In this document: positions 1 to 26,213 of the stretch, one piece after another | Position numbering within the stretch: the stretch's first letter is position 1 | How the letters are laid out: every line of letters starts with the position of its first letter | From: Planctomycetota bacterium | Lineage (GTDB): Bacteria; Planctomycetota; UBA1135; UBA2386 | Reading direction: 5' to 3' | NCBI GenBank assembly: GCA_965228735.1 | Contig: OZ245838.1 | Location: 4,288,001 to 4,352,000 of the forward strand | Length of the DNA: 64,000 bases | Program-made: the position numbers and the translations under genes | The notes under the pieces: generated by a model | The model's database searches: none | What the model was told of the DNA's origin: nothing | The model's input: the letters and a program-made list of their open reading frames with translations, nothing else

Positions 1-1825
1 AGTTCGCGGTGCACGCGACGCCGAAGTGTTCGACCGCGGGCTGCCCGTCACCCATCGAGTACACGTTGCGGTCGTCGACGAGGTACACGCCCCGAAGCCA
101 TGCATTGCCGACCAGCGACATGGGCCGGACCGTCTTCTGCGGCGGGTCAGGCACGGTACGGGCCTGCCAGTTCTGACCGTCAAACTCCCAGATCCGTCCG
201 GAGAACAACGAGAACGACTCCACCATCAGCGTGATGACGTTGCGCGAACCGTCGTACGCCATCGAACCACGCCCGGCCGTCGGGTAGTTCGCGGTCAGGA
301 CCTGGCTCCAGTTCACGCCATCCCACTCCCAGGTATCGAGCAGCCAGTTCCCAGCCGCCCCGCGACCACCGTGCATCACCACCCGCTGGCGACCGAGGTC
401 GTAGGCCATCGCGCAGTCGACCCGCGCCGGGGGCGAGGTCGCCGGGGCGCGCTGTACCCAGTTGCCGGCGCTGAACGACCAGGTGGTGTTCGACACCGGC
501 GACGTCGTCGTGCCACCGAACATCACGAGCTCGCTGTTGGCCCAGTCGAACGTCATCCCCATGCCGTCCGACACCGGCCCCGGCGCGGTCGACAGCTGCG
601 ACCACACCGCCCCGTCGAAGCGCCAGAGGTCGGTGTGCTGCGTGGTCTGCGACGAGCCGCCGTAGACGTAGGCGTACTGCGGCCCGGTCGCAGTCGCGGC
701 GCCCCCCCGTCGTGGCGGCACCGGTCCAGGCACCGCGTTCCAGCCCTGACCGTCGAAGAACCAGGACTCCGGCGCCGACGGGCCGTAGCCGTCGATGAGC
801 ACGATGCCACCACCTGGCCCCGCGGCAACGGCTGCGTTGTAGAGACTCTCGGGATGCGCCGGCCCGGACACGAGCTGCCACCGCGTGCCGTTCCAGGACC
901 AGGTATCGCGAGAGTACTCCCCGGGGTTCGCACCGGCGCCGCCTGCGAGCAGACACTCCAACCGACCGTCATCGAACGTGAATGACGCGCCGGAACGGGC
1001 CGGCGGCGAGGCCGCAGGGTTGGTCGAAATCCAACTCAGACCGTCGTACTCCCACGTATCGACCAAGCCGGTGAAGCCGAACGAGTCACCGCTGAATATC
1101 ACGACGCGCCCACGCAACCGATCGAACGTCATGGCCGCGAACCGGCGTCCCGGCGGTCGCGTCGCGACGTTGATCGGGATCCAGCCCGATCCGTCCCACT
1201 CCCAGGTGTCGTCGAACAGCGTGAAGAACGCGCTGCCGCCGAACAGCACGACCCGCGCTCGCGCCGCGTCGTAGACCATCGTGGCGCCAACCCGGGCGGA
1301 GGGCGCTGTCGCCGTCGTGCGCTGCGACCACGTCATGCCATCGAACGCCCAGGTGTCGGACAGCAAACCCCACGGCGAGCTCGCGTAGCCGCCGAAGAGC
1401 ACGAGTTCGCCCCGCACTTCGTCGAACGTCGTGGCGAACATGATCCGATTCAACGGCCCCGTCGGAGCGGTCAGCGATCGCCACTCGACGCCGTCGAAGG
1501 CGGCGAGGTCGATCGGACCGACGACGTACTCCGACGGCGAGTGGATCATCAGGGTTCGCCCCGTTCGGCCGTCGAAGACCGCGGTGGTCGTGCTCGTCGG
1601 CGTGAGCGGCAGCCTCGGCAGCGCGCGCTGGCGCCACGATGCGCCGTCGAGCTCGAGGGTCTCGCCGTAGGCGCCGATCGCGACGTGCCGTTGCCGAACC
1701 GGATCGAAGACCGCGGCCTTGATCTCGGGCTGATCGACCGTGCGCACCTGCTGGGCAACCGCGGACGCGGCCATTGCCGGACAGAGCACCAGAAACAGGC
1801 GAACAACGGCTTCGGCCCTCGGCAT
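1..1825 (-). CDS. Secreted Kelch/galactose-oxidase-like beta-propeller repeat protein (3' end runs off the window)
   Basis: Absent from the ORF track because there is no stop in the window. Manual translation from ATG 1825 gives MPRAEAVVRLFLVLCPAMAASAVAQQ... with repeated blades such as MVYDAARARVVLFGG..DTWEWDG and MAYDLGRQRVVMHGG..DTWEWDG; the frame is open to base 2 and ends EHFGVACTAN. Confidence 0.85.
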   Translation of the reverse strand, partial: MPRAEAVVRLFLVLCPAMAASAVAQQVRTVDQPEIKAAVFDPVRQRHVAIGAYGETLELDGASWRQRALPRLPLTPTSTTTAVFDGRTGRTLMIHSPSEYVVGPIDLAAFDGVEWRSLTAPTGPLNRIMFATTFDEVRGELVLFGGYASSPWGLLSDTWAFDGMTWSQRTTATAPSARVGATMVYDAARARVVLFGGSAFFTLFDDTWEWDGSGWIPINVATRPPGRRFAAMTFDRLRGRVVIFSGDSFGFTGLVDTWEYDGLSWISTNPAASPPARSGASFTFDDGRLECLLAGGAGANPGEYSRDTWSWNGTRWQLVSGPAHPESLYNAAVAAGPGGGIVLIDGYGPSAPESWFFDGQGWNAVPGPVPPRRGGAATATGPQYAYVYGGSSQTTQHTDLWRFDGAVWSQLSTAPGPVSDGMGMTFDWANSELVMFGGTTTSPVSNTTWSFSAGNWVQRAPATSPPARVDCAMAYDLGRQRVVMHGGRGAAGNWLLDTWEWDGVNWSQVLTANYPTAGRGSMAYDGSRNVITLMVESFSLFSGRIWEFDGQNWQARTVPDPPQKTVRPMSLVGNAWLRGVYLVDDRNVYSMGDGQPAVEHFGVACTAN

Positions 1826-1865
1826 TCCCCCATGCTACCGGCAACCCGAAGCGGCCGCCGGCGCC

Positions 1866-2017
1866 TCGGTCGCGCTGGAACAGGATCCGGTTCTTCTCGT
1901 CCGCCACGACCCGCTGTCGCGCTCGGCCTTGCTGATGAGGACGTCGCGCAGCATCACCCCGTGCTCCTGCGGTTGGTGCCCGCGGCGAAGCCCGCGATGC
2001 CGGCCCCGCCGCGCGCG
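1866..2017. repeat. Degenerate direct-repeat copy of the last ~154 bp of the 5'-nucleotidase gene (3236-3389)
   Basis: Manual alignment to 3236-3389 shows 7 substitutions and 2 single-T deletions; the stop codon is mutated TGA>CGA on the minus strand. Confidence 0.95.
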
Positions 2018-2087
2018 GATCGTCCATCGATCGAACTCGTCGCCGCGGCCGGCACACCGGACTTCGAATCGGCGATATCATCGCGCC

Positions 2088-3185
2088 ATGCGACCAATCG
2101 CGCTCCTGTTCCCGCTCGCAATGACTACGGCCACGATCGCCCAGACATTCATCGTCGACGCGAATAACGGCCTGGGCACGAGCTTCACGTCGCTGGCGGC
2201 GGCGGCCGCCGCGGTGCCCGATGGAGCCATCCTGCTCGTCCGGCCGGGAAACTACGTTGACTTCGTCGTCGACGGCAAGGGGTTGCGCATCCTCGCGGAC
2301 CCCGGCGCGCTGGTCGTGAGCCACCAGGGCTCGAGCATCCGCAACGTGCCGGCCGGCAAGAGCGTTGTCGTGCGCGGTCTCGAGTGGGCGCAGGCAACCC
2401 CTGGCTCGAGCGCGAAGCTACGCTGTTTCGCGTGCGCGGGTCAGATCCTCATCGAGGGTCTGAGCATGCCGGCAGTCGGATTCGTCGCCTTCATTCGCGC
2501 GACCGCCTGCGAGCAGGTCACGATCCGAGACGTCCGCAACCTCGGCGGCAACACCTATCTCGACCTCACGCAGAGTCACGCCGTCGTCGAGAACTGCGGC
2601 TTCGGCGGCTTCTCGGCGCGATCCGCGATCATCCAGAACGGCGGCAGCCTGCAGGTCACGGACAGCGACCTCGCCACCGCGCTGCCGTCCTCGCCACCGA
2701 ACGGTGGTGTCGAGATGCACGGCGGCGAGCTGCGGCTGCTGGGCGCGACCGCAGTGACTGCGTTCGGCGGCGTCGGCGTCGCGGGCACAGCTGGCACGGC
2801 GCGCGTCGATCCGACGGTGACGCTGCCGGCACCCGCATTCGCCCCTGCCATCCAGGGCTCGATCACGACGATGCCGGCGCTGTCGACGTCGTTCGACGGC
2901 ACGACCGCGATCGCGGAGCTCACCGGGGAGGCCGGCGCGTTCGCCGCGATCGCCATCGGGCTGCCCGGCCCTCGCACGGTGCTGCCCGGCATCGCGGATC
3001 CGCTGTGGCTCGATTCCGGCTCGCTCGCGTTCCTCGCTTTCGGCACGCTCGGGCCGACCCCGCTGACTCGCACCCTGCCGTGGTCGGGCGCCATGGTGCC
3101 GGGCTCGCGCACCGTCTGGCAAGGCGCCAGCCTCGGAGCCTCCGGGCTGCAGCTCAGCAACCCGTCGGTCTTGATTCTGCCCTGA
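2088..3185 (+). CDS. Secreted hypothetical protein, pectin-lyase/beta-helix-like N-terminus plus putative conserved C-terminal domain
   Basis: Signal peptide MRPIALLFPLAMTTATIAQ; FIVD..G..FTSL.AA...VPDGAILLVRPGNY resembles a beta-helix cap. Start moved from 1740 to ATG 2088. Confidence 0.75.
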   Translation: MRPIALLFPLAMTTATIAQTFIVDANNGLGTSFTSLAAAAAAVPDGAILLVRPGNYVDFVVDGKGLRILADPGALVVSHQGSSIRNVPAGKSVVVRGLEWAQATPGSSAKLRCFACAGQILIEGLSMPAVGFVAFIRATACEQVTIRDVRNLGGNTYLDLTQSHAVVENCGFGGFSARSAIIQNGGSLQVTDSDLATALPSSPPNGGVEMHGGELRLLGATAVTAFGGVGVAGTAGTARVDPTVTLPAPAFAPAIQGSITTMPALSTSFDGTTAIAELTGEAGAFAAIAIGLPGPRTVLPGIADPLWLDSGSLAFLAFGTLGPTPLTRTLPWSGAMVPGSRTVWQGASLGASGLQLSNPSVLILP

Positions 3186-3235
3186 GCGCGGCTCGCCCCT
3201 GGATTCGCCGGATCACGGCGCGCGTGCGCGGGCAG

Positions 3236-4873
3236 TCAGTCGCGCTCGAACAGGATCCGGTTCTTCTCGTCGGCCACGACCCGCTTGTCGCGCTCGGCCT
3301 TGCTGATGAGGACGTCGCGCAGCATCACCCCGTGCTCCTTGCGGTTGGTGCCGGCCGCGAAGCCCTCGATGCCGTCCCCGCCGCGCGCGAGGAACGAGCT
3401 CGTCACGACGCGATACGTCTTCTTCTCGTCGAGCGGCCGCCCCGCGATCTCGACCTTCACGAGCTCACGATCACGACCCTTGGCCCGATACGTGTAGGTC
3501 GCGCCACCGATCTCGAGCAGCCGGCGGCGGCCCTGCAGCGAGCCTTCGATGAGGTCCCACAACTGCGCGCCCGTCAGGTCCATCGAGACCAGCTCGTTCT
3601 CGAACGGCAGCAGCTCGTAGATCATCCGCGGCGTCAGCGGACCGGCCTGCAATCGCGTGCGGATGCCGCCCTTGTTGGTGAACGCGACGTCACCGCCGGT
3701 CGCCTCGAGGAACGCATCGCAGATCAGGTTGCCGGCGGCCGTCGAGCGCGCGCCGCGGCTGTCGTTGAGCGGCGTGACGAGTTCGCCGATCACGCGATCC
3801 CACTTCGCGGTGATCGCCTTGGTCTCTGTCGCGATCCACTTCTCGGTCGCCGGGTCCGGCGGGTACTCGTCGAGTTCGAGCGCCACGAGCTCGCCCTTCT
3901 CGATGACGAGCTCCTTCGCCTCGGCGTCCACCCGCGCCTCGAGCCGGTAGACCTCGCTCGCCTTGCCGTGGGTCTGGACGATCCACGTGTCACCCTCGCG
4001 CAGCGGTTCGCGCAGGCCGGTGTGGGAGTGGCCGCCCAGGATCAGCGGAATCTCGGGGAACCGCTTCGCGAGTCTTCGATCCACGGACACCCCGGAGTGC
4101 GTCAGCAGGACGACGACGTCGCTCGCCTTCTTCGCCGCCGGCAGCACTCGCGCGATCGCCGCGGCCTCGTTCTCGAACTCGGCGTCGCCCCACGGCCCCG
4201 TCGACACCCCCTTGGTCTGTTCGGTGATGAGCCCGAGGATCGCGATCTTCAGGCCGTGCACGGTCACGACGTGGAACGGCGTGACGTAGTCCATGTAGGT
4301 CGCGGGCTCCTTGCCTGCCACGAGGATGTTGGCGCCGAGCACGGGGAAGTCCGCGGCCGCGACGAGCGCTTCGACGTTCTCGGGTCCGTAGTCGTACTCG
4401 TGGTTGCCGAGCACGGCAGCCGTGACACCGAGACGCTCGAAGAACTCGACCGACAGCCTGCCGCGCGTCTCGTTGCCCTCGATCGTGCCCTGATACCAGT
4501 CGCCGCCGTCGGTCGCGATCACGGGCGCACCGCGCTTCTTCGCCGCCGCGCGTTCGCGCTTGACGAACGTCGCCATCGACGCCGCGCCGCCGACGTGCGG
4601 CAGCTCGCGCTGATCCCCGCCGGCCCGTGCCTTCCAGAACGCGAGCTGGGGCCGGAACTGCCCGTGGAAGTCGTTCCAGTGCAGGAACACCACGGGACCG
4701 TCGCGGAGCTTCGACTGACAGGCGGCCGGCCGCCCGAGCAGCGCAACGAACGCGAGCACGAGGAACGCAGCGGTCCAGCTGCGGCGCGCGCAGCGGGCGG
4801 GTGAGATCGGGCGATCGGACGTCGGCACGGCGCCCTGGGTACCCGATCGGGACCACGGCCGCCAGTCGCCCAC
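3236..4873 (-). CDS. Bifunctional metallophosphatase/5'-nucleotidase (UshA-like), secreted
   Basis: Motifs NDFHG, DGGD, GNHEYD, LTHSG, GGHSH and C-terminal NKGGIR/LLPFEN. Exact start uncertain. Confidence 0.92.
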   Translation of the reverse strand: MGDWRPWSRSGTQGAVPTSDRPISPARCARRSWTAAFLVLAFVALLGRPAACQSKLRDGPVVFLHWNDFHGQFRPQLAFWKARAGGDQRELPHVGGAASMATFVKRERAAAKKRGAPVIATDGGDWYQGTIEGNETRGRLSVEFFERLGVTAAVLGNHEYDYGPENVEALVAAADFPVLGANILVAGKEPATYMDYVTPFHVVTVHGLKIAILGLITEQTKGVSTGPWGDAEFENEAAAIARVLPAAKKASDVVVLLTHSGVSVDRRLAKRFPEIPLILGGHSHTGLREPLREGDTWIVQTHGKASEVYRLEARVDAEAKELVIEKGELVALELDEYPPDPATEKWIATETKAITAKWDRVIGELVTPLNDSRGARSTAAGNLICDAFLEATGGDVAFTNKGGIRTRLQAGPLTPRMIYELLPFENELVSMDLTGAQLWDLIEGSLQGRRRLLEIGGATYTYRAKGRDRELVKVEIAGRPLDEKKTYRVVTSSFLARGGDGIEGFAAGTNRKEHGVMLRDVLISKAERDKRVVADEKNRILFERD

Positions 4874-4951
4874 CCCGGCAGCGCCCGCGATTGGCGTTCA
4901 GCCCGACCCAGCCCCTTCCCCCGCCGCCCGGGCGGCCTATCCTGACGCCCG

Positions 4952-6085
4952 ATGGCGGTTCCTCTGATCGATCTCACCCGTGACAAGCAGCTGCTCGCCG
5001 GCGTCGAAGCCGCGGTCGTCGACGTCGTGCGCAGCGGGCAGTACGTGCTCGGCACCACGGTCGAACACTTCGAGCAGGAGCTCGCCGAATACCTCGGCTG
5101 TCGCCACGTCGTCGCGATGTCGTCCGGCACGGACGCGCTGCTGGCGCCGCTCATGGCGCTCGACATCGCGCCCGGCGACGAGGTCGTGCTGCCGACCTAT
5201 TCGTTCTTCGCGACCGCCGGGGTCGTGGCGCGGCTCGGCGCCAGGCCGGTGTTCATCGACATCGAGCCGACCCACTGGAATCTCGACCCGGAGCGCCTCG
5301 ACGAAGCGCTGCAGCAGTGCACGCGGCCGAAAGCCGTCATCGGCGTTCACCTGTTCGGCACCGCGTTCGACGTCGACGCCGTGCTCGACGTCTGCCGCCG
5401 GCACTCGGTGCCGCTCATCGAGGACGCGGCGCAGGCCATCGGCACGAAGCATCAGGGCAAGATGCTGGGCAGCCGCGGGCTGTGCGGCGCCTGGTCGACG
5501 TTCCCGACGAAGAACCTCGGCGGCATCGGCGACGGCGGGTTCTTCACGAGCGACGACGACGAGTTCGCCGCCAAGGTGCGTCTGCTGCGCAACCACGGCA
5601 TGGCCGAGCACTACGAACACCACGTCATCGGCGGCAACTTCCGCATGGACGCGATCCAGGCCGCTGCGCTGCGGGTGAAGCTGCGCGCGATCGAGGACAT
5701 CACGGAGACGCGGCGGCTGAACGCCGAGCGCTACCGGCGCCTCTTCGCCGAGGCCGACCTCGGCGACTGGGCCGAGCTGCCGACCGACACCGACCGGCAT
5801 GCCTACCACCAGTTCGTCGTGCGCATCCCGCCGGAGCACCGCGACGGCGCGATCCAGCACCTGCGGCAGCAGGGCATCGGGTGCGGGGTCTACTACCCGA
5901 TCCCGTTCCACCGGCAGCCGTGCTTCGCCTACCTCGGCGCGGATCCCGCCGACTTCCCGGTCGCGGAACAGGCGAGCAAGACCGCGCTCGCCCTGCCGAT
6001 CTTCCAGGGGCTGACGGAAGCCGAGCAGATCGACGTCGTCGGCGCGCTCAAGCGCTACCCGCGACCGGTCGGCGCGGGTCAGTAG
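4952..6085 (+). CDS. DegT/DnrJ/EryC1/StrS family PLP-dependent aminotransferase
   Basis: SSGTDAL, VHLFG, IEDAAQAIG, STFPTKNLGGIGDGG (PLP lysine), NFRMDAIQAA. Confidence 0.95.
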   Translation: MAVPLIDLTRDKQLLAGVEAAVVDVVRSGQYVLGTTVEHFEQELAEYLGCRHVVAMSSGTDALLAPLMALDIAPGDEVVLPTYSFFATAGVVARLGARPVFIDIEPTHWNLDPERLDEALQQCTRPKAVIGVHLFGTAFDVDAVLDVCRRHSVPLIEDAAQAIGTKHQGKMLGSRGLCGAWSTFPTKNLGGIGDGGFFTSDDDEFAAKVRLLRNHGMAEHYEHHVIGGNFRMDAIQAAALRVKLRAIEDITETRRLNAERYRRLFAEADLGDWAELPTDTDRHAYHQFVVRIPPEHRDGAIQHLRQQGIGCGVYYPIPFHRQPCFAYLGADPADFPVAEQASKTALALPIFQGLTEAEQIDVVGALKRYPRPVGAGQ

Positions 6086-6127
6086 GCGAGCAGCCAGACC
6101 GCGCCGGTCTGCGGCCGCCCGGCGGGG

Positions 6128-7228
6128 CTACTGGGTCCCGAGCCGCACCGCGACACCGAACGCCTCGACGTCGGTCGCGATCGTCGCGTCGGCGTCGGCG
6201 CCGTTGCTGACCATCCACGTGCCGCGGCCCGCGGCCGTGAGCGAGCCGAGCGTGACCGTCTGGGCGTTGCTGAAGGCCGCACCCAGGGCGTTGGCGTTCG
6301 GGGCGAACACCGCGAGCTGCTGGTGCAGCACGATGCCCGAGAACGCCGGCACGGCGGCCGGCACGAACGGGAAGTCCGCGAGCTCGCCGCTCGCGTCCGC
6401 GACGGTGAACACGGTCGCGTCCTGGCTCACGAGCACGTCGCAGTTCGTGCCGTTGAGCGTCAGCGGCAGCGCACCGAGCAGGCTCTGCGTGTTGCTGAGA
6501 CCGAAGATGACGAGCGCGGGCGCGTTCGCACCGAGGTTCTGACCGCCGAGGAACTGCGCCGAGCCCGGCGCGACGATGCCGCCGCTCGAGATCGCCACGG
6601 GCGGCGTGGAGCCGTCGATGCTGCAGCCCTGACCGAACGGCGTGACCGTGCCATCGACGGGACCACCCGTCGTCGCGACGCCGTCGAGGATCGTGTGCGC
6701 GAAGCCGAACTGCGAGAAGTTGTTGCCTTCCATCTGCAGGTCGATGACGAGCCAGCCGCCGGCCGGGATCGTGACCGCGACCGGCACCGCAAAGGCGAAG
6801 GTCAGGCTGCCGTTGGGATCGCCCCAGCCGTGCGGCGCGGCGACACCCGGATCCGGGCGGTAGTTCACGCTCGAGTCGAACGCCGTCGTGAGCGGGCTCG
6901 TGAGGTTGTCGGCAAACCGCGCGCCGGGGATCCCGACCGTCGTCGTGCCGACGCGGATCTGCATTCGCTGGATGTTGAACGGGCCGGGCGCGCCGACCTG
7001 CGGCAGCGGACCGTCCCAGCGGAACGACAGCTCGTTGGCCGTGAACGACGACGACCCGACCTCGGTCGCATCGAAGAACAGCTGCACGCGCGCATCGGTC
7101 TGCGCGAACGGCGGCAGCGCGAAGTTGGGGAGTTCCTGCGCCGGGTTCGCGGTCGCGGGGAGTTCGAGGAAACCCTGCGCCAGCAGCGGCGAGCTGCTGA
7201 GCAGGACGGCGACAGTCAAGTTCTTCAT
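6128..7228 (-). CDS. Secreted hypothetical protein with putative conserved C-terminal domain
   Basis: Signal peptide MKNLTVAVLLSSSPLLAQ; FGQGC...C.V.V..D...ADASG...G.VL.QQ...ANALG..FSN. Confidence 0.75.
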   Translation of the reverse strand: MKNLTVAVLLSSSPLLAQGFLELPATANPAQELPNFALPPFAQTDARVQLFFDATEVGSSSFTANELSFRWDGPLPQVGAPGPFNIQRMQIRVGTTTVGIPGARFADNLTSPLTTAFDSSVNYRPDPGVAAPHGWGDPNGSLTFAFAVPVAVTIPAGGWLVIDLQMEGNNFSQFGFAHTILDGVATTGGPVDGTVTPFGQGCSIDGSTPPVAISSGGIVAPGSAQFLGGQNLGANAPALVIFGLSNTQSLLGALPLTLNGTNCDVLVSQDATVFTVADASGELADFPFVPAAVPAFSGIVLHQQLAVFAPNANALGAAFSNAQTVTLGSLTAAGRGTWMVSNGADADATIATDVEAFGVAVRLGTQ

Positions 7229-7313
7229 GGCGTCGTTGGAATACGAAATCGTTCGGGGCACCTGTGCGATTGGAACGCTAGATCGACGTCGACGGCGCTG
7301 TGTCACCGCCCGG

Positions 7314-8060
7314 TCATTCCGCGACCGAAACCGACAGGCCATCGCTCGCCGCGCGTTCGGGCCGCGACGCGTCACACTTCACGGGCCTTCGTGAACACAG
7401 CGCGTGACCCGACCAGATCAGCACGAGCCCGACGAACTCTCCGACGTAGAGCGCTTCGACGATCCCGGCCTTCGCCATCCCGCCGCCGACCCCGGGCAGG
7501 ATGCCGCCGATCGCGATCGCCGCGGTGCCGAGCGCCCGCCGCCCATCGGCAACCTGGCCCGGTAGTGGCCGCACGAACCGGAACGTCGACCACAGCGCGC
7601 CGCCGACCAGGAACAACGCCGCGTAGCCGTTGATGAACGGCGTACCGAGCCGCAGCTGACTCCAGCCGATCGCGTCACCCGTCGGCCGATGCGGTTCGAG
7701 CGCCGCGTGATCGATCGGCGACAGCACCACGGCGACCGCGAGCCCGATGACCACCGTGCCCGAGATCCAGGTGAGCCGATTCGCCACGGAACGGCTGCAG
7801 AGCAGGTACACGCTGCCCGTGCCGAGCGGATAGCCCCCGAGCAACGCCCCGGCGACGTACCACCATCGCGTGAGCTCCGCGCTGTTGCCGAACAGGGTGA
7901 TCGCCGACTCGAGCGCCGTGCCGGCGCCATACGTCACGATGCCGATCGCCCACCACAGCAGGTGCGGGGGCAGGCCCACGATCGAACGCCGGCGCAGCAA
8001 CGCGATCAGGAACGCGACCGACAGCAGCGTCGTCGCGATCGGCAGGTAGTGAACGAGCAT
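7314..8060 (-). CDS. Multi-pass membrane protein of unknown function
   Basis: About 7 hydrophobic segments; start at ATG 8060 or 8093. Confidence 0.7.
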   Translation of the reverse strand: MLVHYLPIATTLLSVAFLIALLRRRSIVGLPPHLLWWAIGIVTYGAGTALESAITLFGNSAELTRWWYVAGALLGGYPLGTGSVYLLCSRSVANRLTWISGTVVIGLAVAVVLSPIDHAALEPHRPTGDAIGWSQLRLGTPFINGYAALFLVGGALWSTFRFVRPLPGQVADGRRALGTAAIAIGGILPGVGGGMAKAGIVEALYVGEFVGLVLIWSGHALCSRRPVKCDASRPERAASDGLSVSVAE

Positions 8061-8156
8061 CGGCCCGGTCGCGGAGTCCTCTTGTGCCAGCATCGTGACA
8101 CCATCCCCCGCTCCGGCCTCGCGTGTGTCACGAGCCCGTCACTCCCACGCAGGCCA

Positions 8157-11100
8157 CTACTGCGCGAGAGTGCCGTGAAACGCCTGGGTCCAGTTGCCCG
8201 TGCCGACGTTGCTGAGCTGCACGGTGAGGACCTGGAGACCGAGCGGCAACCCGAGGAACGTCTGGTCGTTGGGGAAGTCGACGTGGAACGGCGTGCCGTT
8301 GAACGCCCACGTCACGCTGAAGAACGGAAACCCCGGCTGCTGGATGTTGGCGTTGCCATACGGCGGCAGGAACTGCCCGACACCGAGGAACGGGCCGCCG
8401 AAGAACAGGATGCCGGCCCCCGGCGGGTTGCCCTGGAACGGCTGCCCGTCGACCACGATCGCGACCGACGACCCGAGCCGCGGCACCCCGGCGATCGTGG
8501 CGTCGTAGACCGCATACTCGTAGGCCCCGATGTCCGGCAACGCGAACCCGAACAGATTGTGGTCGAGCACGCGGCTGCGGCCGTCGTGATCTTCATAGGT
8601 GAACGCATCGTTGGGTGCGCCCGCATTGCCGACGCAGGGCGAGAACAGCGACAGACTCAGGTCCCCGTTGTTCGGGTCCGTGAACAGCGGGTCGGCGACG
8701 AAGTTGTTCTGCGTGCCGGCGTGCGCGGGCGACCCGTTCGACGAGAAGATCCGCGCCGGCAGCCCGAGGCCATCCACGAAGCCCACGAAGTTGTCGTTCG
8801 GGTTCACCCCGTTGAACCAGGAGATCGAGGCCGATGCCGCGCCGCTGTGCGTGCCCTCGGAAACGACCCCGCGACCCTGGTTCGCCGCGACCGTCGCGTG
8901 GATCAGGCTCACCGCCGTCGCCGAGAGCACGATCCCGTCCCCGCTGTTGCCGAAGGCCACGAGGTTGCGGCAGCCGCCGCCGTTCTGCGCGATGTTGATG
9001 CCATCCGATGCGGACAGCTCGACGCGCACGGCGTCGATCGACACGTTGGCCGTATCGAGCGTGACCGTCGCGGCACCGATGCCGCCAAAACGCGCGAGCA
9101 CGTGGTTCATCTGCGCCGGCGCGGTCGAGAAGCCGTACTCGACCCGACCCCAGCTGCCGGGGCCCGGCGCCGACGCGTTGCCATCACCGTTCGTATCGCC
9201 GCCATGGTCGTCATCGAGGAACGACGTGAGCACGATCGGCGCGTAGCCGCGACCGTCGAAGAACAGGCTCGTGCCCGGCCCACCCGCGGTGAACCCGGAA
9301 CTCGACGCGCTCGCGGCGGTGAACTTCACGATCAGACCCGCACCGAGCTGCAGGCTCGTGTTGGAGTTCATGACCGTGCGCACGTCGGCGACGATCACCC
9401 CGTCGCCGTTCAACGTGTTCCACACGTCCACGCGAGTGCTCGTTCCCGATGCGCCGGTGGCGCCGTTGACGAGCCGGGTGTAATCACCGAGCACGTTGCC
9501 GGTCGCCGTGCAATCGGAGAAGCGCGTCATCTGCGTCCACGCGAAGCCGTCGACCGCGCGACCGAGGTTGCCGTCGAACCGGCACCGTCGAACGATCGGC
9601 CGACTGCTCGTCAGGCGCAGACCCAGGGTCGCCGAGCGCTCGATGGCCGTGTCCACGAGCAGGATGTCCGCGCCGTTGAGGAGTTCGACCGCGCCTGCGA
9701 GGTTGTTGCCGCCGAACCGGACGCTCGTGAAACGCAGCTCGCTGGCGTCCGCGGTGCCGCCGAACGACAGTCCGGGCCAGTCACCGGGCGTGCCGACCGT
9801 CGGTCCGTCGCGACCCGTATCGCCGCCGATCGCATCGTCGGCGAGCGAGGTGAACACGACCGGCGCGTTGGCCGTGCCGTTGCAGACCAGCGCGCCGGTG
9901 ACGCTCACGCGCCTCGTTGCCGTCGCCCACTTGAAGATCACGCCAGGGCCGACCGTGAACGTTCGGCCGACGTTGATCTGCAGCACCGGATCCATCACGA
10001 GCGTGTCCTCGATCAGGTTGTTCGTCGTGACCGTCAGGTTCGCGCTGACGATGCCGTTCGTGACGCGGATCGCGTCGCCGAGCAGGTTGCCGGTCCCCGT
10101 GTTGGCGACGAAGTTCGGCAGGCCCAGCATCGACACGCGATCGATCGAGCGGCCGAGATTGTCGTCGAACCGACAGTTCTGGACGGTCGGCATGGTGCCT
10201 TGCACATCCAGTCCATCGCTCGCCGACCGCTCCACGTGGACCGCGGCCAAGGTGATGTTCGATTGCAGCAGCGAGATCGCCCCCGGCGTGCCGTTGCCGG
10301 CGAATCGAACCCGCGTCGAGCGCAGCACGCTGGCGTCGGAACTGGCACCGAACGTGAGCCCGTCCCAGTCGCCCGGCGCACCGACCGACGGACCGTCCTT
10401 GCCGGTGTCCCCTCCGATCGCGTCGTCCGCCAGGGACGTGAAGACCACGGGGGCCTGACTCGTGCCGTCGCACAACAGCGTGCCGTTGACGATGAACCGA
10501 TCGTCCGTCTCGTACTTCACGACCACCCCCGCGGCGATCGTCAACTGCCGGCCCGTCGGCACGGTCACGTTGTTGGCGATGACGATCGTCGAGTCGACGA
10601 GGTTCGTCGGCCCGATGAACTGGGTCCCGAGAATCGTGCCCGACGTGACCCGAATCACGTCAAGGGCGTTCCCGCTCGCGACATTGTTGCCGAGCATCGG
10701 CAGCCCCTGCAGAGTCGCGCGCTCGAACGCGCGCCCGGCGCAGTTCTGAACCCGGCAACCGATGATCGTCGGCATCGCCCCCAGGAGGTTGATGCCCGCG
10801 CTCGCCGAATCGGTCACGACAACGCCGTCGAGCAGCACGTTCGACTGCAGGGTCTGCACGGCTCCGTCGCCGTTGCTACCACTGAACCGCACCTCGAGCC
10901 CGCGCACCTGACTGGTGTTCGACGAGATGAACTGCAGCCGCCCCCAGTCGCCCGGCGCCGGCGCGAGCGGGTCGATCGCGAGCCCGACGGTGCCATCTCT
11001 GGTCGACGTGAAGAACACGGGCATCGTCGCCGAGCCGTTGACGTCGAGCGTACCGGCGATCTGGAAGCTCGTGCCGGCGGCGAACTTGACGACCACCCCG

Positions 11101-11288
11101 GGCTGTACCGTAAGCGTGCGCGTGCTCGACACGGACACGGACTGGTTCGCGACGTAGGTGTTGCCCGTCAGCAGCGGCCCGAACGTCGAGTCGTCGACGT
11201 TGGGGGGCAACGGAATCGGGCTCTGCGCTTGGACGGCGAGAGCGAACGCCACGGCGACGACCGTCGGAGGGAATGCATCGAATCTCAT
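8157..11288 (-). CDS. Large secreted right-handed parallel beta-helix repeat protein (~1043 aa)
   Basis: Signal peptide MRFDAFPPTVVAVAFALAVQAQ; four units LT(V/I).PGV.VKF...G.L...G....PV.FTS..DD..GGD; ADPLF..P..GDLSL...SPC and PDIGAYE motifs near the C-terminus. Confidence 0.85.
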   Translation of the reverse strand: MRFDAFPPTVVAVAFALAVQAQSPIPLPPNVDDSTFGPLLTGNTYVANQSVSVSSTRTLTVQPGVVVKFAAGTSFQIAGTLDVNGSATMPVFFTSTRDGTVGLAIDPLAPAPGDWGRLQFISSNTSQVRGLEVRFSGSNGDGAVQTLQSNVLLDGVVVTDSASAGINLLGAMPTIIGCRVQNCAGRAFERATLQGLPMLGNNVASGNALDVIRVTSGTILGTQFIGPTNLVDSTIVIANNVTVPTGRQLTIAAGVVVKYETDDRFIVNGTLLCDGTSQAPVVFTSLADDAIGGDTGKDGPSVGAPGDWDGLTFGASSDASVLRSTRVRFAGNGTPGAISLLQSNITLAAVHVERSASDGLDVQGTMPTVQNCRFDDNLGRSIDRVSMLGLPNFVANTGTGNLLGDAIRVTNGIVSANLTVTTNNLIEDTLVMDPVLQINVGRTFTVGPGVIFKWATATRRVSVTGALVCNGTANAPVVFTSLADDAIGGDTGRDGPTVGTPGDWPGLSFGGTADASELRFTSVRFGGNNLAGAVELLNGADILLVDTAIERSATLGLRLTSSRPIVRRCRFDGNLGRAVDGFAWTQMTRFSDCTATGNVLGDYTRLVNGATGASGTSTRVDVWNTLNGDGVIVADVRTVMNSNTSLQLGAGLIVKFTAASASSSGFTAGGPGTSLFFDGRGYAPIVLTSFLDDDHGGDTNGDGNASAPGPGSWGRVEYGFSTAPAQMNHVLARFGGIGAATVTLDTANVSIDAVRVELSASDGINIAQNGGGCRNLVAFGNSGDGIVLSATAVSLIHATVAANQGRGVVSEGTHSGAASASISWFNGVNPNDNFVGFVDGLGLPARIFSSNGSPAHAGTQNNFVADPLFTDPNNGDLSLSLFSPCVGNAGAPNDAFTYEDHDGRSRVLDHNLFGFALPDIGAYEYAVYDATIAGVPRLGSSVAIVVDGQPFQGNPPGAGILFFGGPFLGVGQFLPPYGNANIQQPGFPFFSVTWAFNGTPFHVDFPNDQTFLGLPLGLQVLTVQLSNVGTGNWTQAFHGTLAQ

Positions 11289-11340
11289 GCCCGATCGGGG
11301 AGCAGGCGAAGCGGTCCGTGACGGACAATCTGCAGAACCG

Positions 11341-14022
11341 CTACCGCTGCAGCTCCCGCGACGGCCGCACCCCGAGGCCCGGATAGGTGAAATCGAGCAC
11401 GAAACGCGCCCGCCGAGCCGAGCGCTGCGCCGACGCCGGCTCGGAGAAGCACCCGGACCGCACGGCCATGTAGCGGCTGTTCGTGCGCGGCCGGTAACCA
11501 TCGCCCGCACGCACCGGCGTCTCGTAGCTGCCATGCCAGTCCCGGCACCACTCCATCACGTTCCCGGCGGTGTCGTGCAGCCCGAACCGATTGGCCTCGA
11601 ACGAACCGACGGGTGCGTGGTGCGTGAAGCCATCGTCCCAGTCCTCGAGCGTCCACGTCACCCGCGCGTTCTTCGAGATGCGCGGGTTCTGGTCCGCGAC
11701 GTTTGCCGCCCCGATCAGGCTGCGCTTGTCGTCACCGGTCCACCAGATCGTCGATGTTCCGGCCCGCGCCGCGTACTCCCACTGGGCCTCGGTCGGCAAC
11801 TCGCACTCGAGGCGCAGCAGCCATTGGCGCGCGTCAAAGTAGGAGATCATCTCGACGGGATGCGCGAGCGAGATCGTATGCGTGCGCAGCTTCGTGCCGG
11901 CGGTATGCCCGCTCGGGTTGTCGCCCGTGACGCGCAACCATTGACCCTGCGTCATCTCGAACTTCGACAGGAAGAACGCATCGAGTTCGATCTCCGCGGT
12001 CGGTTCCTCGATCCGCGTGAGACCAGGGTCGACGTTCGGCTGCCCGACGCCATGCTCGCCATCGGGCCGGATCGCGCCGATCGTGAACCGACCCGGCGGC
12101 ACGAGAACGAACACGAGACCGCTCGACTCGTCGATGTCGAGGCGGCCGTCGCCGCCGCGCCGCGGGACGCGGCCGGTCTGCGGGTGCCCGAACTCGAACA
12201 GGCCGCTCACCGGGTCGCGTCCGAGCGGCACGAGCCCGGTCTGCGGCGTGAGCTGCAACCCGTCGTAGCGCGGATCCGCGGCGACGGCGGCGATCGTGTC
12301 GCGCCAGTCGGCTCGACGACTCGCGACCGTCAGGTCGTCGACCTCGAGGGCGAAGCCGCGCCGCGCCTCGATGCGTGCCACGCGATCCGCCAGGAGCGGG
12401 ATGCCCTCGACCAGCTCCGTGAGCTCGAAGTACTCCCGAACGAGATCCGGGTCGTCGAACGGCGAAGCCTGCCGGAGGCGGTCGCGTTCGTAATTGCTGA
12501 TCAGCGCCTCGTCGAACAGGCTCATGTGGCGATCGAACGGTCCATCACCGCGACTCTGGATCTTGCTGCGCCGTTTCGCGATCGCGGCTCGGAGACTCAC
12601 GAGCTCCGCGGCCGTGGTCGGGTCGCGCTGCCGCGCCCGGCCGTCGAGGGTCGCGAGCCGCGCTTCATAGTCCGGCAGCGCCGCCTGCAGCGCGTGCGCC
12701 CGCTCGAGCCAGTGGTCCATTCCGCGCGGGCCGGTGACGCGCTCCTCGGTCGCCGGCCACAGGAACTGCTCCTCCCGCGGCAGGTCGCGCAGCGTCAGCA
12801 CCGCCATCGTCGTGGCCTTGGCCTCCTGCTCGGCCCGCAACCCGCCCAGCAGATCGAGCGAAACGAAGAGCGCCGTGGCCAGCACGGCCACCGTGAGCAC
12901 GAGGCTCGCGAGCGCGAGGGCGGCAGCCGGCTTGCGCCGCGCCCACTTCCAACTCCGTCGCACGAACCCCGGCGGCGCCGCCGCGATCGGTCGACGCTCG
13001 AGAACGGCCAGGAGGTCGTCGGCGAACGCTTCCGCGCTCGGGTAGCGGTCCTCGGGATTCTTCTCGATCGCCTTCTGCACGACCACCGCCAGGTCGCGCG
13101 AAACGGCCCGATTGAGCCGTCGTGCCGCCGGCGGATCCGTCGTGAGGATCTGCCGAAACACCTGCTCGCGAGTCTCACCGCGGAACGGCAGCTCGTTCGT
13201 CAAGCAGCAATGCAGCGTGACACCGAGCGAGAAGACGTCCGATCGCGGCCCGATGTCACTGCGGGCGTCGACCTGCTCCGGCGAAGCGAAGTTCGGCGAA
13301 CCCTGGAACGTGCCGCTGACCGTCAGCGTCTCGGCATCTGCATCGCGCGCGAGGCCGAAGTCGAGCAGAACGGCGCGATCAGCGGCCGCGATCCGGATGT
13401 TGGACGGTTTGACGTCGCGGTGGACGATCCCGGCCGCGTGCGCGGCGGCGAGACCGCGCGCGATGTCGTGGATCCAGCGGCACACCTGTTCCGCCGACAG
13501 CAGTCGGTCCTCGGCGCGCGCTTCGGCCACGACCTCGTCGAGCGGCTGACCGGCGAGGAGCTCCATCGCGAGGAACGCGACGCCGTCGTGATCACCGGCA
13601 TCGTAGACGGTGACGATGTTGGGATGCTGGAGCCGCGCGACCGCGAGCGCCTCGCGGCGAAAGCGCTCCTGCGCCGACGTGCCGGCGTGCAGTGCCTTGA
13701 TCGTCTTGAGCGCGACGAGACGCCTGGTCGGATCGTGCCTCGCCAGATAGACGACGCCCATGCTGCCCTCGCCGAGTCGGCGCAAGAGCCGATACTGCCC
13801 GATCCGCTCGATCATCGGCATCGCGGCCGACTCCCCGCCAACGAGGCCGAACCCAACGAGCGAGCCGAGCAGCTTGCGCAACTCGTCGGCGACATCGGGG
13901 TGGGCTGCGAGAATCTTCTCGACAGCCGGCACTCCGCTCTTTTCCCCGGCTTCGATACACTCGTACAGCAGCTGTTCGAGCGCCGCCTCCTCGTCCGGAA
14001 CTGTCGGGAACGGATCCGTCAT
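11341..14022 (-). CDS. Ser/Thr protein kinase fused to C-terminal FGE-sulfatase (SUMF1-like) domain
   Basis: LGEGSMG.V, ALK, HRDVKPSN, DFGLA, SPEQ, DVFSLG; TM helix; FFLSKFEMTQGQW, LPTEAQWEYAARAG, NRFGLHDTAGNVMEWC. Confidence 0.93.
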   Translation of the reverse strand: MTDPFPTVPDEEAALEQLLYECIEAGEKSGVPAVEKILAAHPDVADELRKLLGSLVGFGLVGGESAAMPMIERIGQYRLLRRLGEGSMGVVYLARHDPTRRLVALKTIKALHAGTSAQERFRREALAVARLQHPNIVTVYDAGDHDGVAFLAMELLAGQPLDEVVAEARAEDRLLSAEQVCRWIHDIARGLAAAHAAGIVHRDVKPSNIRIAAADRAVLLDFGLARDADAETLTVSGTFQGSPNFASPEQVDARSDIGPRSDVFSLGVTLHCCLTNELPFRGETREQVFRQILTTDPPAARRLNRAVSRDLAVVVQKAIEKNPEDRYPSAEAFADDLLAVLERRPIAAAPPGFVRRSWKWARRKPAAALALASLVLTVAVLATALFVSLDLLGGLRAEQEAKATTMAVLTLRDLPREEQFLWPATEERVTGPRGMDHWLERAHALQAALPDYEARLATLDGRARQRDPTTAAELVSLRAAIAKRRSKIQSRGDGPFDRHMSLFDEALISNYERDRLRQASPFDDPDLVREYFELTELVEGIPLLADRVARIEARRGFALEVDDLTVASRRADWRDTIAAVAADPRYDGLQLTPQTGLVPLGRDPVSGLFEFGHPQTGRVPRRGGDGRLDIDESSGLVFVLVPPGRFTIGAIRPDGEHGVGQPNVDPGLTRIEEPTAEIELDAFFLSKFEMTQGQWLRVTGDNPSGHTAGTKLRTHTISLAHPVEMISYFDARQWLLRLECELPTEAQWEYAARAGTSTIWWTGDDKRSLIGAANVADQNPRISKNARVTWTLEDWDDGFTHHAPVGSFEANRFGLHDTAGNVMEWCRDWHGSYETPVRAGDGYRPRTNSRYMAVRSGCFSEPASAQRSARRARFVLDFTYPGLGVRPSRELQR

Positions 14023-14093
14023 GATCGTCGGGCGTGAGCGATACCCGCGAGTCGATAGCGTAGCTTCCTCCGGCCCGGTGCCGGGGACCACTG

Positions 14094-14672
14094 ATGACCG
14101 AATTCGAAGGCCTCCTGGAACGCGCCCGCGCGGGGAACCGTGACGCCGTCGAGCGCCTGCTCGAACGTCACCTCCACGGACTCCGGGCCTACGTTCGCCT
14201 GCACAGCGGCCGCGACCTGCGCGCGCTCGAATCGCACTCGGACCTCGTGCAGTCCGTCTGCCGCGAGGCTCTGAACAGCCTGCAGGACGCCAGAGCCGAC
14301 GACGAACCGACGTTCCGTCAGTGGCTCTACTCGATCGCGCGCCACAAGATCATCGGGAAGGTCGACTTCCATCGCGCCCAGAAGCGTGACGTGCGCCGAC
14401 TCATGCCCGACGGCGAAGCCGCGTTGCTCAGGGCCTACGGCTCGTTCTGCTCGCCGAGCCAGGAGGCCAGTCAGCGCGAGCAGGTCAGCGCCATCGAAGC
14501 CGCGTTCGATCAGCTGTCGGAGGATCATCGTCGGGTCATTCTCGAAGCATGCCTGCTGGGTCGACCGCACGCGGAGCTGGCAGCCGAAATGGGCCGCAGC
14601 GAGGAGGCGTTGCGGCAGCTGCTGTCCCGGGCGCGTGCCCGTCTCGCGATGCTGCTGCGGGGCTCGGCGTGA
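14094..14672 (+). CDS. ECF RNA polymerase sigma-70 factor (kinase-associated, planctomycete-type)
   Basis: SDLVQS..., FRQWLYSIARHK, region 4 LSEDHRRVI..ELAAEMGRSEEALRQLLSRAR; divergent from the kinase. Confidence 0.88.
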   Translation: MTEFEGLLERARAGNRDAVERLLERHLHGLRAYVRLHSGRDLRALESHSDLVQSVCREALNSLQDARADDEPTFRQWLYSIARHKIIGKVDFHRAQKRDVRRLMPDGEAALLRAYGSFCSPSQEASQREQVSAIEAAFDQLSEDHRRVILEACLLGRPHAELAAEMGRSEEALRQLLSRARARLAMLLRGSA

Positions 14673-14688
14673 CGGCCGCGCGGTCGAG

Positions 14689-16116
14689 TTACTGATCGGG
14701 GCCGATCACGCCGATGCAGGCGTTGGTAACCGCGACGCCGTCGTTACCGCTGAAGATGATTCCCTGCGCGAACAGCGGCACACCGGCGAACGTCGTGTCG
14801 TTCGGCAACGTCCCCGTGAACACCGCGGAACCGTCGGGCGCGGTCGTCGCGAGCGGCAGCGTTGCGCCGACCTTCACGTAGATCACGTCGTCGAGGCCGA
14901 ACGGCGACAGCAACGTCGGTGGGTCGTGCAGTTCGAGCCCCACGATCATCGCCATCAGCGCGTTCGGGGTGGCGCCGTACACCTGCACCCCGTAGCCGAA
15001 CCCGACCAGCGGCGGCGCGAACATCGTCGTGAACCCGACGCTGCCGTCGCTGCCGGGCGTGCCGGCCCCGATGATCGTCACGGGCGCTGGGTCCTGGAGC
15101 CGAACGGTGTCGCTGCCGCTCGCCGTGAAAAGCGTGAGCTCGACCAGGTTCTGCCTGAAACTCGCGAGCTGCGCAGGCGACAACGGGATGGGTTGGAAGC
15201 CGAAGACCCCGCCGCCGAGGTTGACCCCGATCGCCATCAGAGCGTTCGTGCCGACCTCGCGCAGGTCGACTGCCGTCACGGTCTCGGGATAGTCCGCCGT
15301 CAGGACCGTGCCCGCGAGCCCGTCACCCGGCAGCAACTGGAACGTCGCGATCGCATTGTCGGTCGCGCCGTCGGTCGAGCTCGTGAGCGACTCTCGGAGC
15401 CGGCGCTCGAATCGCGAGTCCCCGGTGCCGAGCACGTTTCCGCCGCCGTCCTTCACGCGGGCGAACGTGCCGTTCTTGATCACGTCGATCTCGGATTTCG
15501 TGAGCAGCTGCAGACCGTTGAACGACGGTCCGGTGCCGAGCGGGATCGTCGTCGACCCGGGGTTCTGCGGGGTGCCTTCGACGAGCTCGAACTCGTTCGC
15601 CTGCGTCGTGCCCGTGCCGAGCTGCACGACCATCTGGCCCGTCTGCTCGAAGACGGTGAAGTAGCCGCCACCCGGCGACGGTCCGTTCACCGTGAAGACC
15701 CCCTCGAGCGGCCGCGCCCGCCGCAGCACATCCGTGAGCGTGGCGCCGTTGCCCGGGATGCTCACGGTTGCGAGCCCCTGGCCGATGATGTTCACCAGAG
15801 CGACGTCCGAGACCACGAGGGAGAAGACCGCCTTGGCGTTCGGCGGCGAGCCGATGACGCCATTCGACGTGAACGCGAAGGTGCCGACCGGGGACAGCAC
15901 GGTCGGGTTCGCGCTCCCGTGACTCACCGGAACGATCAGTTCGAGGAGGACGAGCGGCCCCTGGATGTAGCCGGTCACCTCGGCCGGCCCCTCGCCCGCG
16001 TTGACGCCGGGCCGCGCGCCGACCGGCACCGGCGTTCCGGCAGCCTGCGCGCCCGCAATGCCGGGGGTGAGAATGGTGAGGCCGAGGACGAGAGAACGGA
16101 GACCGTTGGAGTTCAT
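14689..16116 (-). CDS. Secreted hypothetical protein with putative conserved C-terminal domain
   Basis: Signal peptide MNSNGLRSLVLGLTILTPGIAGAQ; C-terminus DGSAVF..TLPND..FAG.PLFAQG...G.A.TN. Confidence 0.75.
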   Translation of the reverse strand: MNSNGLRSLVLGLTILTPGIAGAQAAGTPVPVGARPGVNAGEGPAEVTGYIQGPLVLLELIVPVSHGSANPTVLSPVGTFAFTSNGVIGSPPNAKAVFSLVVSDVALVNIIGQGLATVSIPGNGATLTDVLRRARPLEGVFTVNGPSPGGGYFTVFEQTGQMVVQLGTGTTQANEFELVEGTPQNPGSTTIPLGTGPSFNGLQLLTKSEIDVIKNGTFARVKDGGGNVLGTGDSRFERRLRESLTSSTDGATDNAIATFQLLPGDGLAGTVLTADYPETVTAVDLREVGTNALMAIGVNLGGGVFGFQPIPLSPAQLASFRQNLVELTLFTASGSDTVRLQDPAPVTIIGAGTPGSDGSVGFTTMFAPPLVGFGYGVQVYGATPNALMAMIVGLELHDPPTLLSPFGLDDVIYVKVGATLPLATTAPDGSAVFTGTLPNDTTFAGVPLFAQGIIFSGNDGVAVTNACIGVIGPDQ

Positions 16117-16206: not shown

Positions 16207-16722
16207 TCAGCCGACAGCACCCCGCGACAGCGGCAGGCCGACGCCCTCGTGCTCGAGCAGGCGACGCTTGCGCTCCAGGCCGCCGGCGTAGCCCGTGAGC
16301 GACCCGTCGCGGCCGATGATGCGGTGGCATGGCACGACGATCGCGATCGGGTTCTTGCCGTTCGCCGCGCCGACCGCGCGGACGGCCGTCGGGCGACCGA
16401 TCGTCTCGGCGATCTCCGAGTAGCTCGTCGTCGCGCCGAACGGGACGTCGCAGAGTGCGCGCCAGACCGACTGCTGGAACGGGGTTCCCCGCGGCGCGAG
16501 GTCGAGCTCGAACTCACGCCGGCGGCCCTGGAAGTACTCCTCGAGCTGGCGTCGCGCCGGCGAACGGCGGCCATCGGTCCAGGCGATCTCCTCGTCGGGC
16601 TCGGTCAGGTCCTCCGCGAACGCTCGATCACGGCCGAACGTCACGACGAGCAGCGCGTCGTCGCGCTCGGCGAGCATCACCTGGTCGAACGGTCCACGCA
16701 CCACACAGCACTTCACGGTCAT
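16207..16722 (-). CDS. ogt: Methylated-DNA--protein-cysteine S-methyltransferase
   Basis: GTPFQQSVW, RAVGAANGKNPIAIVVPCHRIIG..GSLTGYAGGL. Confidence 0.95.
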   Translation of the reverse strand: MTVKCCVVRGPFDQVMLAERDDALLVVTFGRDRAFAEDLTEPDEEIAWTDGRRSPARRQLEEYFQGRRREFELDLAPRGTPFQQSVWRALCDVPFGATTSYSEIAETIGRPTAVRAVGAANGKNPIAIVVPCHRIIGRDGSLTGYAGGLERKRRLLEHEGVGLPLSRGAVG

Positions 16723-16726
16723 CGAA

Positions 16727-18199: not shown

Positions 18200-18283
18200 G
18201 CGCCCCAATGGAGCACGTCGGCCGCATCGCGTCGTCCGGATTCCACCGGGCAAACTCGGAGTCGCTTCGTTCCGTCACGGCGC

Positions 18284-25860: not shown

Positions 25861-26196
25861 TCAGCCCGCGAGGAAGCCGTTGTCGAGGATCGCGCGCGCC
25901 GCGTTCGCGATCGCGTCCGGCGTCGCGAGCGTGCCGGCCTCGAGGCGCGCCTTCGCCGCCGCGACGATCTCGTGACGTTCGCTGCCCTGGTTGCGGGCGC
26001 GCTCGGCGAGGCCTTCGACCGCAGCGAGCGTGTCCCGCCCGCCGTCGCTGATCTCGGCGTGGTCGTCGCCCTTCACCTGCGGCGGGTGCGGCTGCAGGAC
26101 GACGGTCTTCAGCGCCTTCGGCGCCGGCTGACCGTTCGCCCGGTCGACGGTCGCGCGCTCCGCGTTGGCCGTGTCGGCGGTGGTTCGGATGTTCAT
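25861..26196 (-). CDS. flgM: FlgM-like anti-sigma28 factor
   Basis: 111 aa; DHAEIS and C-terminal R.E.V...K.RLEAG...D....A.AIL pattern; sigma28 promoter upstream; adjacent to flagellar operon. Confidence 0.7.
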   Translation of the reverse strand: MNIRTTADTANAERATVDRANGQPAPKALKTVVLQPHPPQVKGDDHAEISDGGRDTLAAVEGLAERARNQGSERHEIVAAAKARLEAGTLATPDAIANAARAILDNGFLAG

Positions 26197-26213
26197 GGAT
26201 TTCCTCGGGTAGA

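Follow-up and report, generated by a model that had tools for sequence, protein, structure and literature searches.

The DNA discussed here, to which we refer as the window, is a stretch of 64,000 nucleotides from a Planctomycetota bacterium (contig OZ245838.1, positions 4,288,001 to 4,352,000); its first 16,116 positions hold the genes of five exported proteins that differ in their N-terminal parts and share, at or near the C-terminus, one domain of about 120 residues. The domain is real and unnamed, and it may dock the proteins that bear it (the carriers) to the cell surface, together with the parts to which it is attached (the passengers).

Five carriers in the window

At the left edge of the window, on the minus strand, lies the gene of a Kelch β-propeller protein (1..1825; 718 aa in full), which has an AQ-type signal peptide, matches the Kelch families and carries the domain at E 1.2e-22; its tail starts at about position 40 and reaches the stop 328 bases outside the window. 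An earlier reading of the window from its letters, the sequence-only reading, had guessed that this truncated propeller protein shares the tail of its neighbours, and the completed gene, which runs 331 bases past the edge, does end in the domain. Two further carriers match no Pfam family: a 365-aa protein on the plus strand (2088..3185), with an AQ-type signal peptide and a divergent tail at ~2859-3182 (E 0.0067), and a 475-aa protein on the minus strand (14689..16116), with an AQ-type signal peptide and the tail at ~14692-15060 (E 3.4e-14). The β-helix protein of 1043 aa (8157..11288, minus strand), which has an AQ-type signal peptide and a Beta_helix match, also ends in a divergent tail (~8160-8495, E 0.0015). 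The 366-aa protein at 6128..7228 (minus strand; domain E 9.4e-9) combines a lectin-like jelly-roll with the tail: the signal peptide (7178-7228) is followed by the jelly-roll (~6635-7177), the tail (~6239-6634) and then 36 further residues (6131-6238). No RNA holder is listed for this last gene.

The two divergent tails are tied to the family by profile-profile comparison, where hhalign gives 98.0 for the tail of 2088-3185 and 94.6 for that of 8157-11288 (reversed controls 0.2 and 0.4); 10 of the 14 single-sequence matches of the former are family members, and the domain is present in 35 of the 94 homologues of the latter, some of them at E 1e-10 to 1e-12. The AQ type of the signal peptides is shared beyond the carriers: genome-wide, most signal peptides, with or without a tail on the same protein, end in A-Q (in the window, those starting at 1825, 2088, 7228, 11288 and 16116), so that the mature protein would start with Gln. 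Mature proteins that begin with Gln resemble the "Q-rule" of Bacteroidota.

Among the loci that were compared, the cluster of window carriers is not a conserved operon: at the closest related locus, the orthologue of 6128-7228 is located between the same flanking genes, while the other four carriers are not found at those places, and at four further loci this orthologue lies ahead of a two-component pair. Between two of the tail genes (11341-14672) lies a divergent pair: one gene is, by reading, that of a sigma factor of the extracytoplasmic function type, and the other encodes a Ser/Thr kinase to which an FGE-sulfatase domain is joined; beyond the last carrier, the labels, also given by reading, are Ada/AlkA-type and methylated-DNA repair genes (16207-18253) and a flagellar gene cluster (25861-40531).

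Family, fold and position of the domain

The source genome of the window (G000) comprises 7.19 Mb in one contig, at 69% GC, is 93% complete and has 5432 called genes; its 61,526 stop-to-stop open reading frames (ORFs) were the search space and reversed ORFs the control. Compared in pairs, the five window tails show little similarity (BLAST reaches E 0.007 at best, phmmer E 5e-6), and for that reason a profile was needed to confirm what had been called by eye. When the searches are iterated from each window tail in turn, all five arrive at the same family, of 264-294 ORFs per seed; any two seeds have 243-275 ORFs in common, and no reversed ORF is among the matches. Our family counts rest on a length-constrained profile, the unconstrained one having drifted into low-complexity sequence: it matches 298 ORFs of the source genome at E < 0.001, to which we refer as the strict members or copies, and no reversed ORF at E 1, and 297 of the 298 coincide with genes called by the codon model. 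Divergent copies, i.e. 34 weak profile matches and 28 profile-profile matches (a comparison in which 60 control proteins scored at most 2.6), bring the family to about 360 of the 5432 genes.

A profile that was built from this family without the window proteins recovers all five tails, at E 1.2e-22 to 0.0067 (for 5432 genes). The tails of the five unrelated window proteins are one shared domain family. The sequence-only reading had proposed this, by eye, for four secreted proteins with different N-terminal parts; its ORFs, coordinates and motifs are present in the window, while its estimate of the tail length, about 100 aa, falls short of the measured 120 or so, and the tail of 6128-7228 is not terminal.

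The order of motifs along the domain is FG.GC, P.LG, a hydrophobic strand ending in G, P(G)C and iP..P.l.G...y.Q....DP....G...SN. The mean column identity is 24%, while single positions are far better kept (of 292 alignment rows, the Gln in 282, the Pro in 273, the Gly in 237), and Lys accounts for 0.2% of the residues. Both of the two Cys are found in 169 rows, neither in 72 and one in 50 (odds ratio 19.6); since they occur together, a disulfide is suggested.

For the copy of the propeller protein, AlphaFold2 gives an all-β model (pLDDT 94.5), whose best structural matches are generic Ig-like domains of the Ig, FnIII and CBM-like kinds (Z 8.6, rmsd 2.7-3.1, 89-101 aligned positions), and the copy of 6128-7228 retrieves the same set of structures. 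The domain is predicted to be an Ig-like β-sandwich, the common fold that had been named in advance as a sign of kinship. A lipid-binding fold of the NPC2/GM2-activator type, seen in weak Foldseek rows (TM ~0.4), is absent from the top 50 of the wide search and was dropped; a homodimer prediction scored 0.00, which we count neither way.

The libraries that were searched hold no name for the domain, as had been supposed. None of 44 members matches any Pfam family at E 0.1, including the PF18962, SLH, CWB2 and dockerin models; NCBIfam has no family for it, with six single, weak and unrelated matches and none to TIGR04183 or TIGR04131; the PDB sequences give no match at E 1 and Foldseek none at E 0.001; and in the ESM Atlas all 30 of the 30 nearest clusters lack a common Pfam 38.1 family, their commonest taxon being Planctomycetota. 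No description was found in the literature that was searched, where coverage was thin for subscription journals.

The passengers are as diverse as the domain is uniform in number. We count 90 passenger families, of which the largest has 99 members. Among 35 proteins chosen from the 150 best public matches there are propellers of the Kelch, FG-GAP and RCC1 kinds, an M64 peptidase, CotH, a glucose dehydrogenase and a multihaem cytochrome, while 7 of these 35 have no family. Carrier genes are dispersed over the chromosome, with 78 adjacent pairs against 23 expected by chance. Our heuristic finds a signal peptide in 267 of the 298 strict members, 236 of them with the AQ cleavage motif, whereas among 4372 other genes the number is 772; most of the 31 strict members that lack a called signal peptide look like wrong starts or atypical peptides.

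An accessory module that binds or stabilises, such as an Ig domain which recognises a carbohydrate or a substrate and plays no part in location, would fit the generic fold matches and the hydrolases and lectin-like domains among the passengers; against it stand the absence of tandem copies (no strict member has two), the spread over some 90 families that include multihaem cytochromes, a CotH kinase and propellers, and the near-exclusion with lipid anchors described below, and we regard it as very improbable.

Strict copies are mostly, though not strictly, terminal, contrary to the position that the sequence-only reading had presumed: a passenger ends in the domain in 262 of the 298, there are 12 N-terminal copies and 1 internal one, another 13 belong to short or stand-alone proteins, and in 10 the domain is followed by 32-44 further residues, taken to be strands of another domain. 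All but one of the 12 N-terminal copies begin directly after the AQ cleavage motif. By reading, 10 of 21 short carriers are complete proteins that consist of a signal peptide and the domain; a stand-alone copy lies, for instance, at 6807602-6808108 of the source genome. No common gene context was found around the stand-alone or the N-terminal copies. Among the 262 C-terminal copies, none has a membrane-like stretch at the C-terminus and two have a basic end.

The single copy per protein, the indifference to position, the stand-alone forms, the very large family and the apolar, nearly Lys-free composition could also be those of a domain that self-assembles into an S-layer-like lattice or sheath, which would display hundreds of passengers and use stand-alone copies as fillers. 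This is improbable in our judgement: the mean column identity is low for subunits that co-assemble, and none of the roughly ten divergent stand-alone genes stands out as a major subunit.

The protein at 6128-7228 offers the closest view of a copy that is not terminal, with 36 residues behind the tail, an extension retained by 65 of 67 homologues. Its model, which lacks the last 16 residues of the protein, has pLDDT 91.9 and pTM 0.87. Four solved single domains, including a PHR domain and the lectin-like domain of Cwp84, align to the model from residue 1 to 327-333 (Z 6.5-7.0), while the tail (186-313) aligns on its own; and in uninterrupted copies of the N-terminal domain the same end motif follows directly, at 16.7, 14.2 and 10.4 bits in 3 of 16 targets, the best of 1994 control windows reaching 10.0 bits and the other 13 targets not standing out. 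Because the solved domains span the tail and the end motif follows the uninterrupted domain, the tail is predicted to sit inserted in a loop of the jelly-roll, which the last 36 residues would complete; a tail so placed would not be removable as a C-terminal unit without part of the passenger fold. The extension alone would not exclude a C-terminal signal, since the C-terminal domain (CTD) of the T9SS (type IX secretion system) tolerates added residues at its end, as section 2.2 of PMC11285876 describes.

Beyond the source genome, 28,853 public clusters at 50% identity match the domain; 148 of the best 150 matches are C-terminal and 2 are N-terminal, and the homologues that have names are mostly called "Planctomycetota bacterium". 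In a survey confined to genomes of the phylum, the domain was found in 40 of 201 sampled genomes (37 with at least 4 matches, 3 with one), and its presence across the families of the phylum is nearly all-or-none. One carrier genome from another family (G177; 2.4 Mb, 86% complete) has 30 strict copies. In one treatment of the group (PMC12159837), OM190 is equated with the proposed "Saltatorellus".

A variant with four Cys aligns to the domain (hhalign 89.6) and occurs in 12 of the 201 genomes, all of which already carry the domain. It is longer than the tail, is strong in, and dominates, one family (P0235, P0257, P0259, P0260, P0265 and P0267; genomes G004, G071, G096 and G174), and has no match in the source genome; such lineage-specific variants could mean that a partner varies along with the tail.

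Proposed surface retention, lipid anchors and the probable route of export

Passengers are poor in charged residues, with a median Lys of 0.4% and a median Lys+Glu+Arg (K/E/R) of 8.3% (n=258), against 2.4% and 17.3% in other AQ-signal proteins (n=679); in the window, the five carriers have 0-1.4% Lys, against 5.1% in a 5'-nucleotidase nearby that has no tail. According to PMC2932507, the relevant part of which does not state a depletion of Lys, cheap amino acids are over-represented in extracellular proteins. When the exported proteins with low K/E/R are sorted by the type of their signal peptide, the domain is found on 287 of the 336 that have an AQ signal and on 1 of 14 lipoproteins (Fisher p 7e-10, a value that overstates the case, since paralogues are not independent). 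Among these proteins the domain is nearly exclusive with lipid anchors, and some proteins with the tail are paralogous to lipoproteins without it (at 56% over 600 aa in one case and 35% over 885 aa in another).

On these grounds we propose, at a probability of about one half, that the domain is a retained module which docks exported carriers to the cell surface. We infer that the carriers end up outside the outer membrane, because their composition is poor in K/E/R and rich in Ser/Thr/Asn/Gly and because they include adhesin, propeller and hydrolase domains. The domain would fold in the periplasm, with its predicted disulfide, and be read as a folded surface, so that its place in the chain would be immaterial. 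It is likely not cut off and would stay on the exported protein, where it likely holds the carrier at the outer cell surface by binding a shared surface partner; it would thereby be the counterpart, on AQ-signal proteins, of the lipid anchor on lipoproteins, given that most lipid-anchored proteins of this composition do not have the domain. Export probably proceeds through Sec and then through the type II secretion system (T2SS), an exit that we infer because it is the only candidate protein exporter found in both the source genome and G177.

Several observations weigh against surface docking. The signal peptides, lipoboxes and gene starts behind the comparison were called by heuristics of our own instead of a trained predictor; one carrier by heuristic, and three by eye, combine a lipobox with the domain; and 49 of the 336 low-K/E/R AQ-signal proteins have no detectable copy, some of which resemble more divergent copies, barrels or lipoproteins, unlike several of the large ones. 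To some extent, low K/E/R may be due to β-rich folds rather than location, and in paired paralogues the tail-less non-lipoprotein is higher in K/E/R in only 41 of 62, with a median difference of 1.5 points. An anchor would not need the strictly C-terminal position that 88% of the copies have, which a late-folding export signal might. Lastly, no binding partner was identified in the gene context or among the candidates shared with G177.

Five of the tail-less exceptions (source genome positions 5689978, 5970101, 7038004, 891893 and 2954019), exported and low in K/E/R, end in a "GDLAIDD" motif, an ending that we take to be MAM-like; they possibly use a second anchoring module.

Our search for machinery covered the components of known systems in the source genome and the genes that it shares with G177. 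PorV has no match in the source genome, in a search whose control was positive in Bacteroides thetaiotaomicron; SprA, PorP and PF18962 have no match there either, in searches for which no control gave a match, although PF18962 is detected by this Pfam copy elsewhere, on the β-helix relatives. GldK gives 13 matches, all far below the cut-off. The source genome has one exosortase, alongside two true PEP-CTERM-like proteins, and one C25-family peptidase, which is tail-less; the exosortase, the C25 peptidase and most small barrel candidates have no match in G177. The 138 low-copy envelope candidates shared with G177, which were gone through by reading without a Pfam scan, contain nothing beyond the usual envelope parts. 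No dedicated translocon, barrel or sortase was found in these searches.

These results bear directly on the idea of a C-terminal sorting signal that is cut off and served by a translocon and a sortase of its own, as in the T9SS. The Ig-like fold, the mostly C-terminal position and the C25-family peptidase of the source genome are what such a signal would have, but copies that are N-terminal, internal or inserted are at odds with it, as are the missing PorV, the sub-threshold GldK and the lack of a C25 peptidase or exosortase match in G177; moreover, the domain has next to no Lys, whereas the CTDs of Porphyromonas gingivalis keep a Lys in the last strand, in the portion of PMC11285876 that treats them. 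A cleaved signal is therefore improbable. The sequence-only reading had proposed a modular C-terminal signal of this kind, served by a dedicated system for export or surface attachment: its modular, shared and lineage-restricted domain on exported proteins stands, and surface attachment appears favoured over cleaved export, while a strict C-terminal position is not supported, and the searches above found no dedicated translocon or sortase.

A folded export signal is a more serious alternative, somewhat doubtful as a full account and compatible with anchoring, as the two can coexist: the T2SS or an unrecognised outer-membrane translocon would bind the domain in the periplasm and export the carrier, which would then be released or held otherwise. 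It would explain why the domain marks nearly all soluble proteins of extracellular type, why there is one copy per protein, mostly C-terminal, and why it takes the place of the T9SS CTD on homologous passengers; the tolerance of that CTD for extensions also means that the extended copies do not speak against it. Candidate exporters are at hand, since seven secretins are encoded in the source genome, along with two T2SS-like operons and another operon of pseudopilins; a GspD-E-F operon and the pseudopilin operon are common to G177. On the other side, the roughly ten passenger-free copies would export only themselves, 13 of the 14 lipoproteins of the same make-up lack the domain, though they would need an exit if surface-exposed, and the one unusual T2SS part that was profiled, a giant GspK-like pseudopilin of 1735 aa, is present in 39 of the 40 domain-carrying genomes and also in 96 of the 161 without the domain.

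Being phylum-wide, this pseudopilin was rejected as tail-specific machinery, and it is an observation in its own right. It is encoded at L181:3220-8427 (source genome 1400802-1406009) and at L055:10855-16008, in an operon with small pseudopilins and PilM-like, FHA and TPR proteins; it is 28% identical over the full length between two families, has a weak T2SSK match and gives matches in 135 of 201 genomes, the best across the phylum being frames of about 1300-2300 aa. It is possibly an undescribed, planctomycete-wide pilus or secretion tip. Two other loci were noted on the way. At L169 (source genome 2689303-2703361) and L177, four large proteins (593-1314 aa), three of them lipoprotein-like and two with a Big_5 Ig match, lie beside a prepilin peptidase and pilT/B/C; the order is similar in G177 (L126-L127), and a C-terminal region is shared with two tail-bearing proteins. 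At L173 (source genome 6775394-6784599) and L045, one operon encodes a secretin lipoprotein, two TPR proteins, one ExbB-like and two ExbD-like proteins, of which the secretin and ExbB are shared with G177.

Taken further, surface docking would mean that a branch of the Planctomycetota displays its extracellular proteome, about 7% of the genes here, by an undescribed system in which one position-independent domain is both the export ticket and the non-covalent anchor, an alternative to lipidation with a receptor unrelated to the T9SS, sortases, SLH or cohesin; we put this forward tentatively, as the less probable extension of the proposal. In any case, the likely extracellular proteome of a branch that is little studied and for the most part uncultured is labelled by one very large family without a name, whose profile predicts surface proteins across these genomes at once and which provides a handle on how these bacteria place proteins on their surface. 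A tag able to act at either chain end or within a loop would be unlike the C-terminal sorting systems known so far.

Comparison with known systems

The nearest likeness is to the type A CTD of the T9SS (Por_Secre_tail, PF18962, of Bacteroidota) and to FlgD-Ig tails, which are single Ig-like β-sandwiches, as the domain is predicted to be, mostly C-terminal on many unrelated passengers, and which occupy the same place as the domain on homologous β-helix passengers: among 20 other relatives of the protein at 8157-11288, selected by their tails, a T9SS CTD forms the end of 5 and FlgD-Ig that of 1-2. The differences are that the T9SS model has 75 positions, whereas the domain has 120 aa, a Cys pair and a strand that bears the Gln, with no sequence match between the two, and that the domain also occurs N-terminally, alone and inserted, has almost no Lys, and is found in a genome where no PorV was detected. 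In structure, the PorU chain of the T9SS is a generic fold match (Z 7.1, rmsd 3.7, 97 aligned, rank 35), and no CTD structure stands out.

By eye, dockerin-like ends are also seen on homologous passengers from other bacteria. Some relatives of the β-helix protein end in a short motif of the "YLPLVLR" type (P0256, P0273, P0287, P0289, P0295, P0297 and P0299) and others in an FN3-like tail (P0261, P0263 and P0279), and these ends may be further lineage-specific C-terminal tags on the same passenger.

With PEP-CTERM/exosortase and GlyGly-CTERM, to which MYXO-CTERM is related as another short C-terminal sorting signal, the domain has in common that many exported proteins of one lineage bear a single kind of tag; it differs from PEP-CTERM in that it is folded, with a transmembrane helix in 0 of 262 C-terminal copies and a basic tail in 2 of 262. 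Its sequence and its varied positions in the chain argue against a cleaved signal of either the PEP-CTERM or the T9SS type.

SLH, CWB2 and dockerin modules are non-covalent surface anchors, which are retained, flexible in position and tie diverse exported proteins to the envelope, and the domain is like them as a position-flexible module, proposed to be retained, on diverse exported proteins. They are built of triple helical repeats or paired EF-hands, whereas the domain is all-β, occurs in a single copy and has no Pfam match, and no cohesin-like scaffold was identified. While it is a member of none of these systems, the domain resembles the T9SS CTD in its distribution and the SLH and dockerin modules in its freedom of position.

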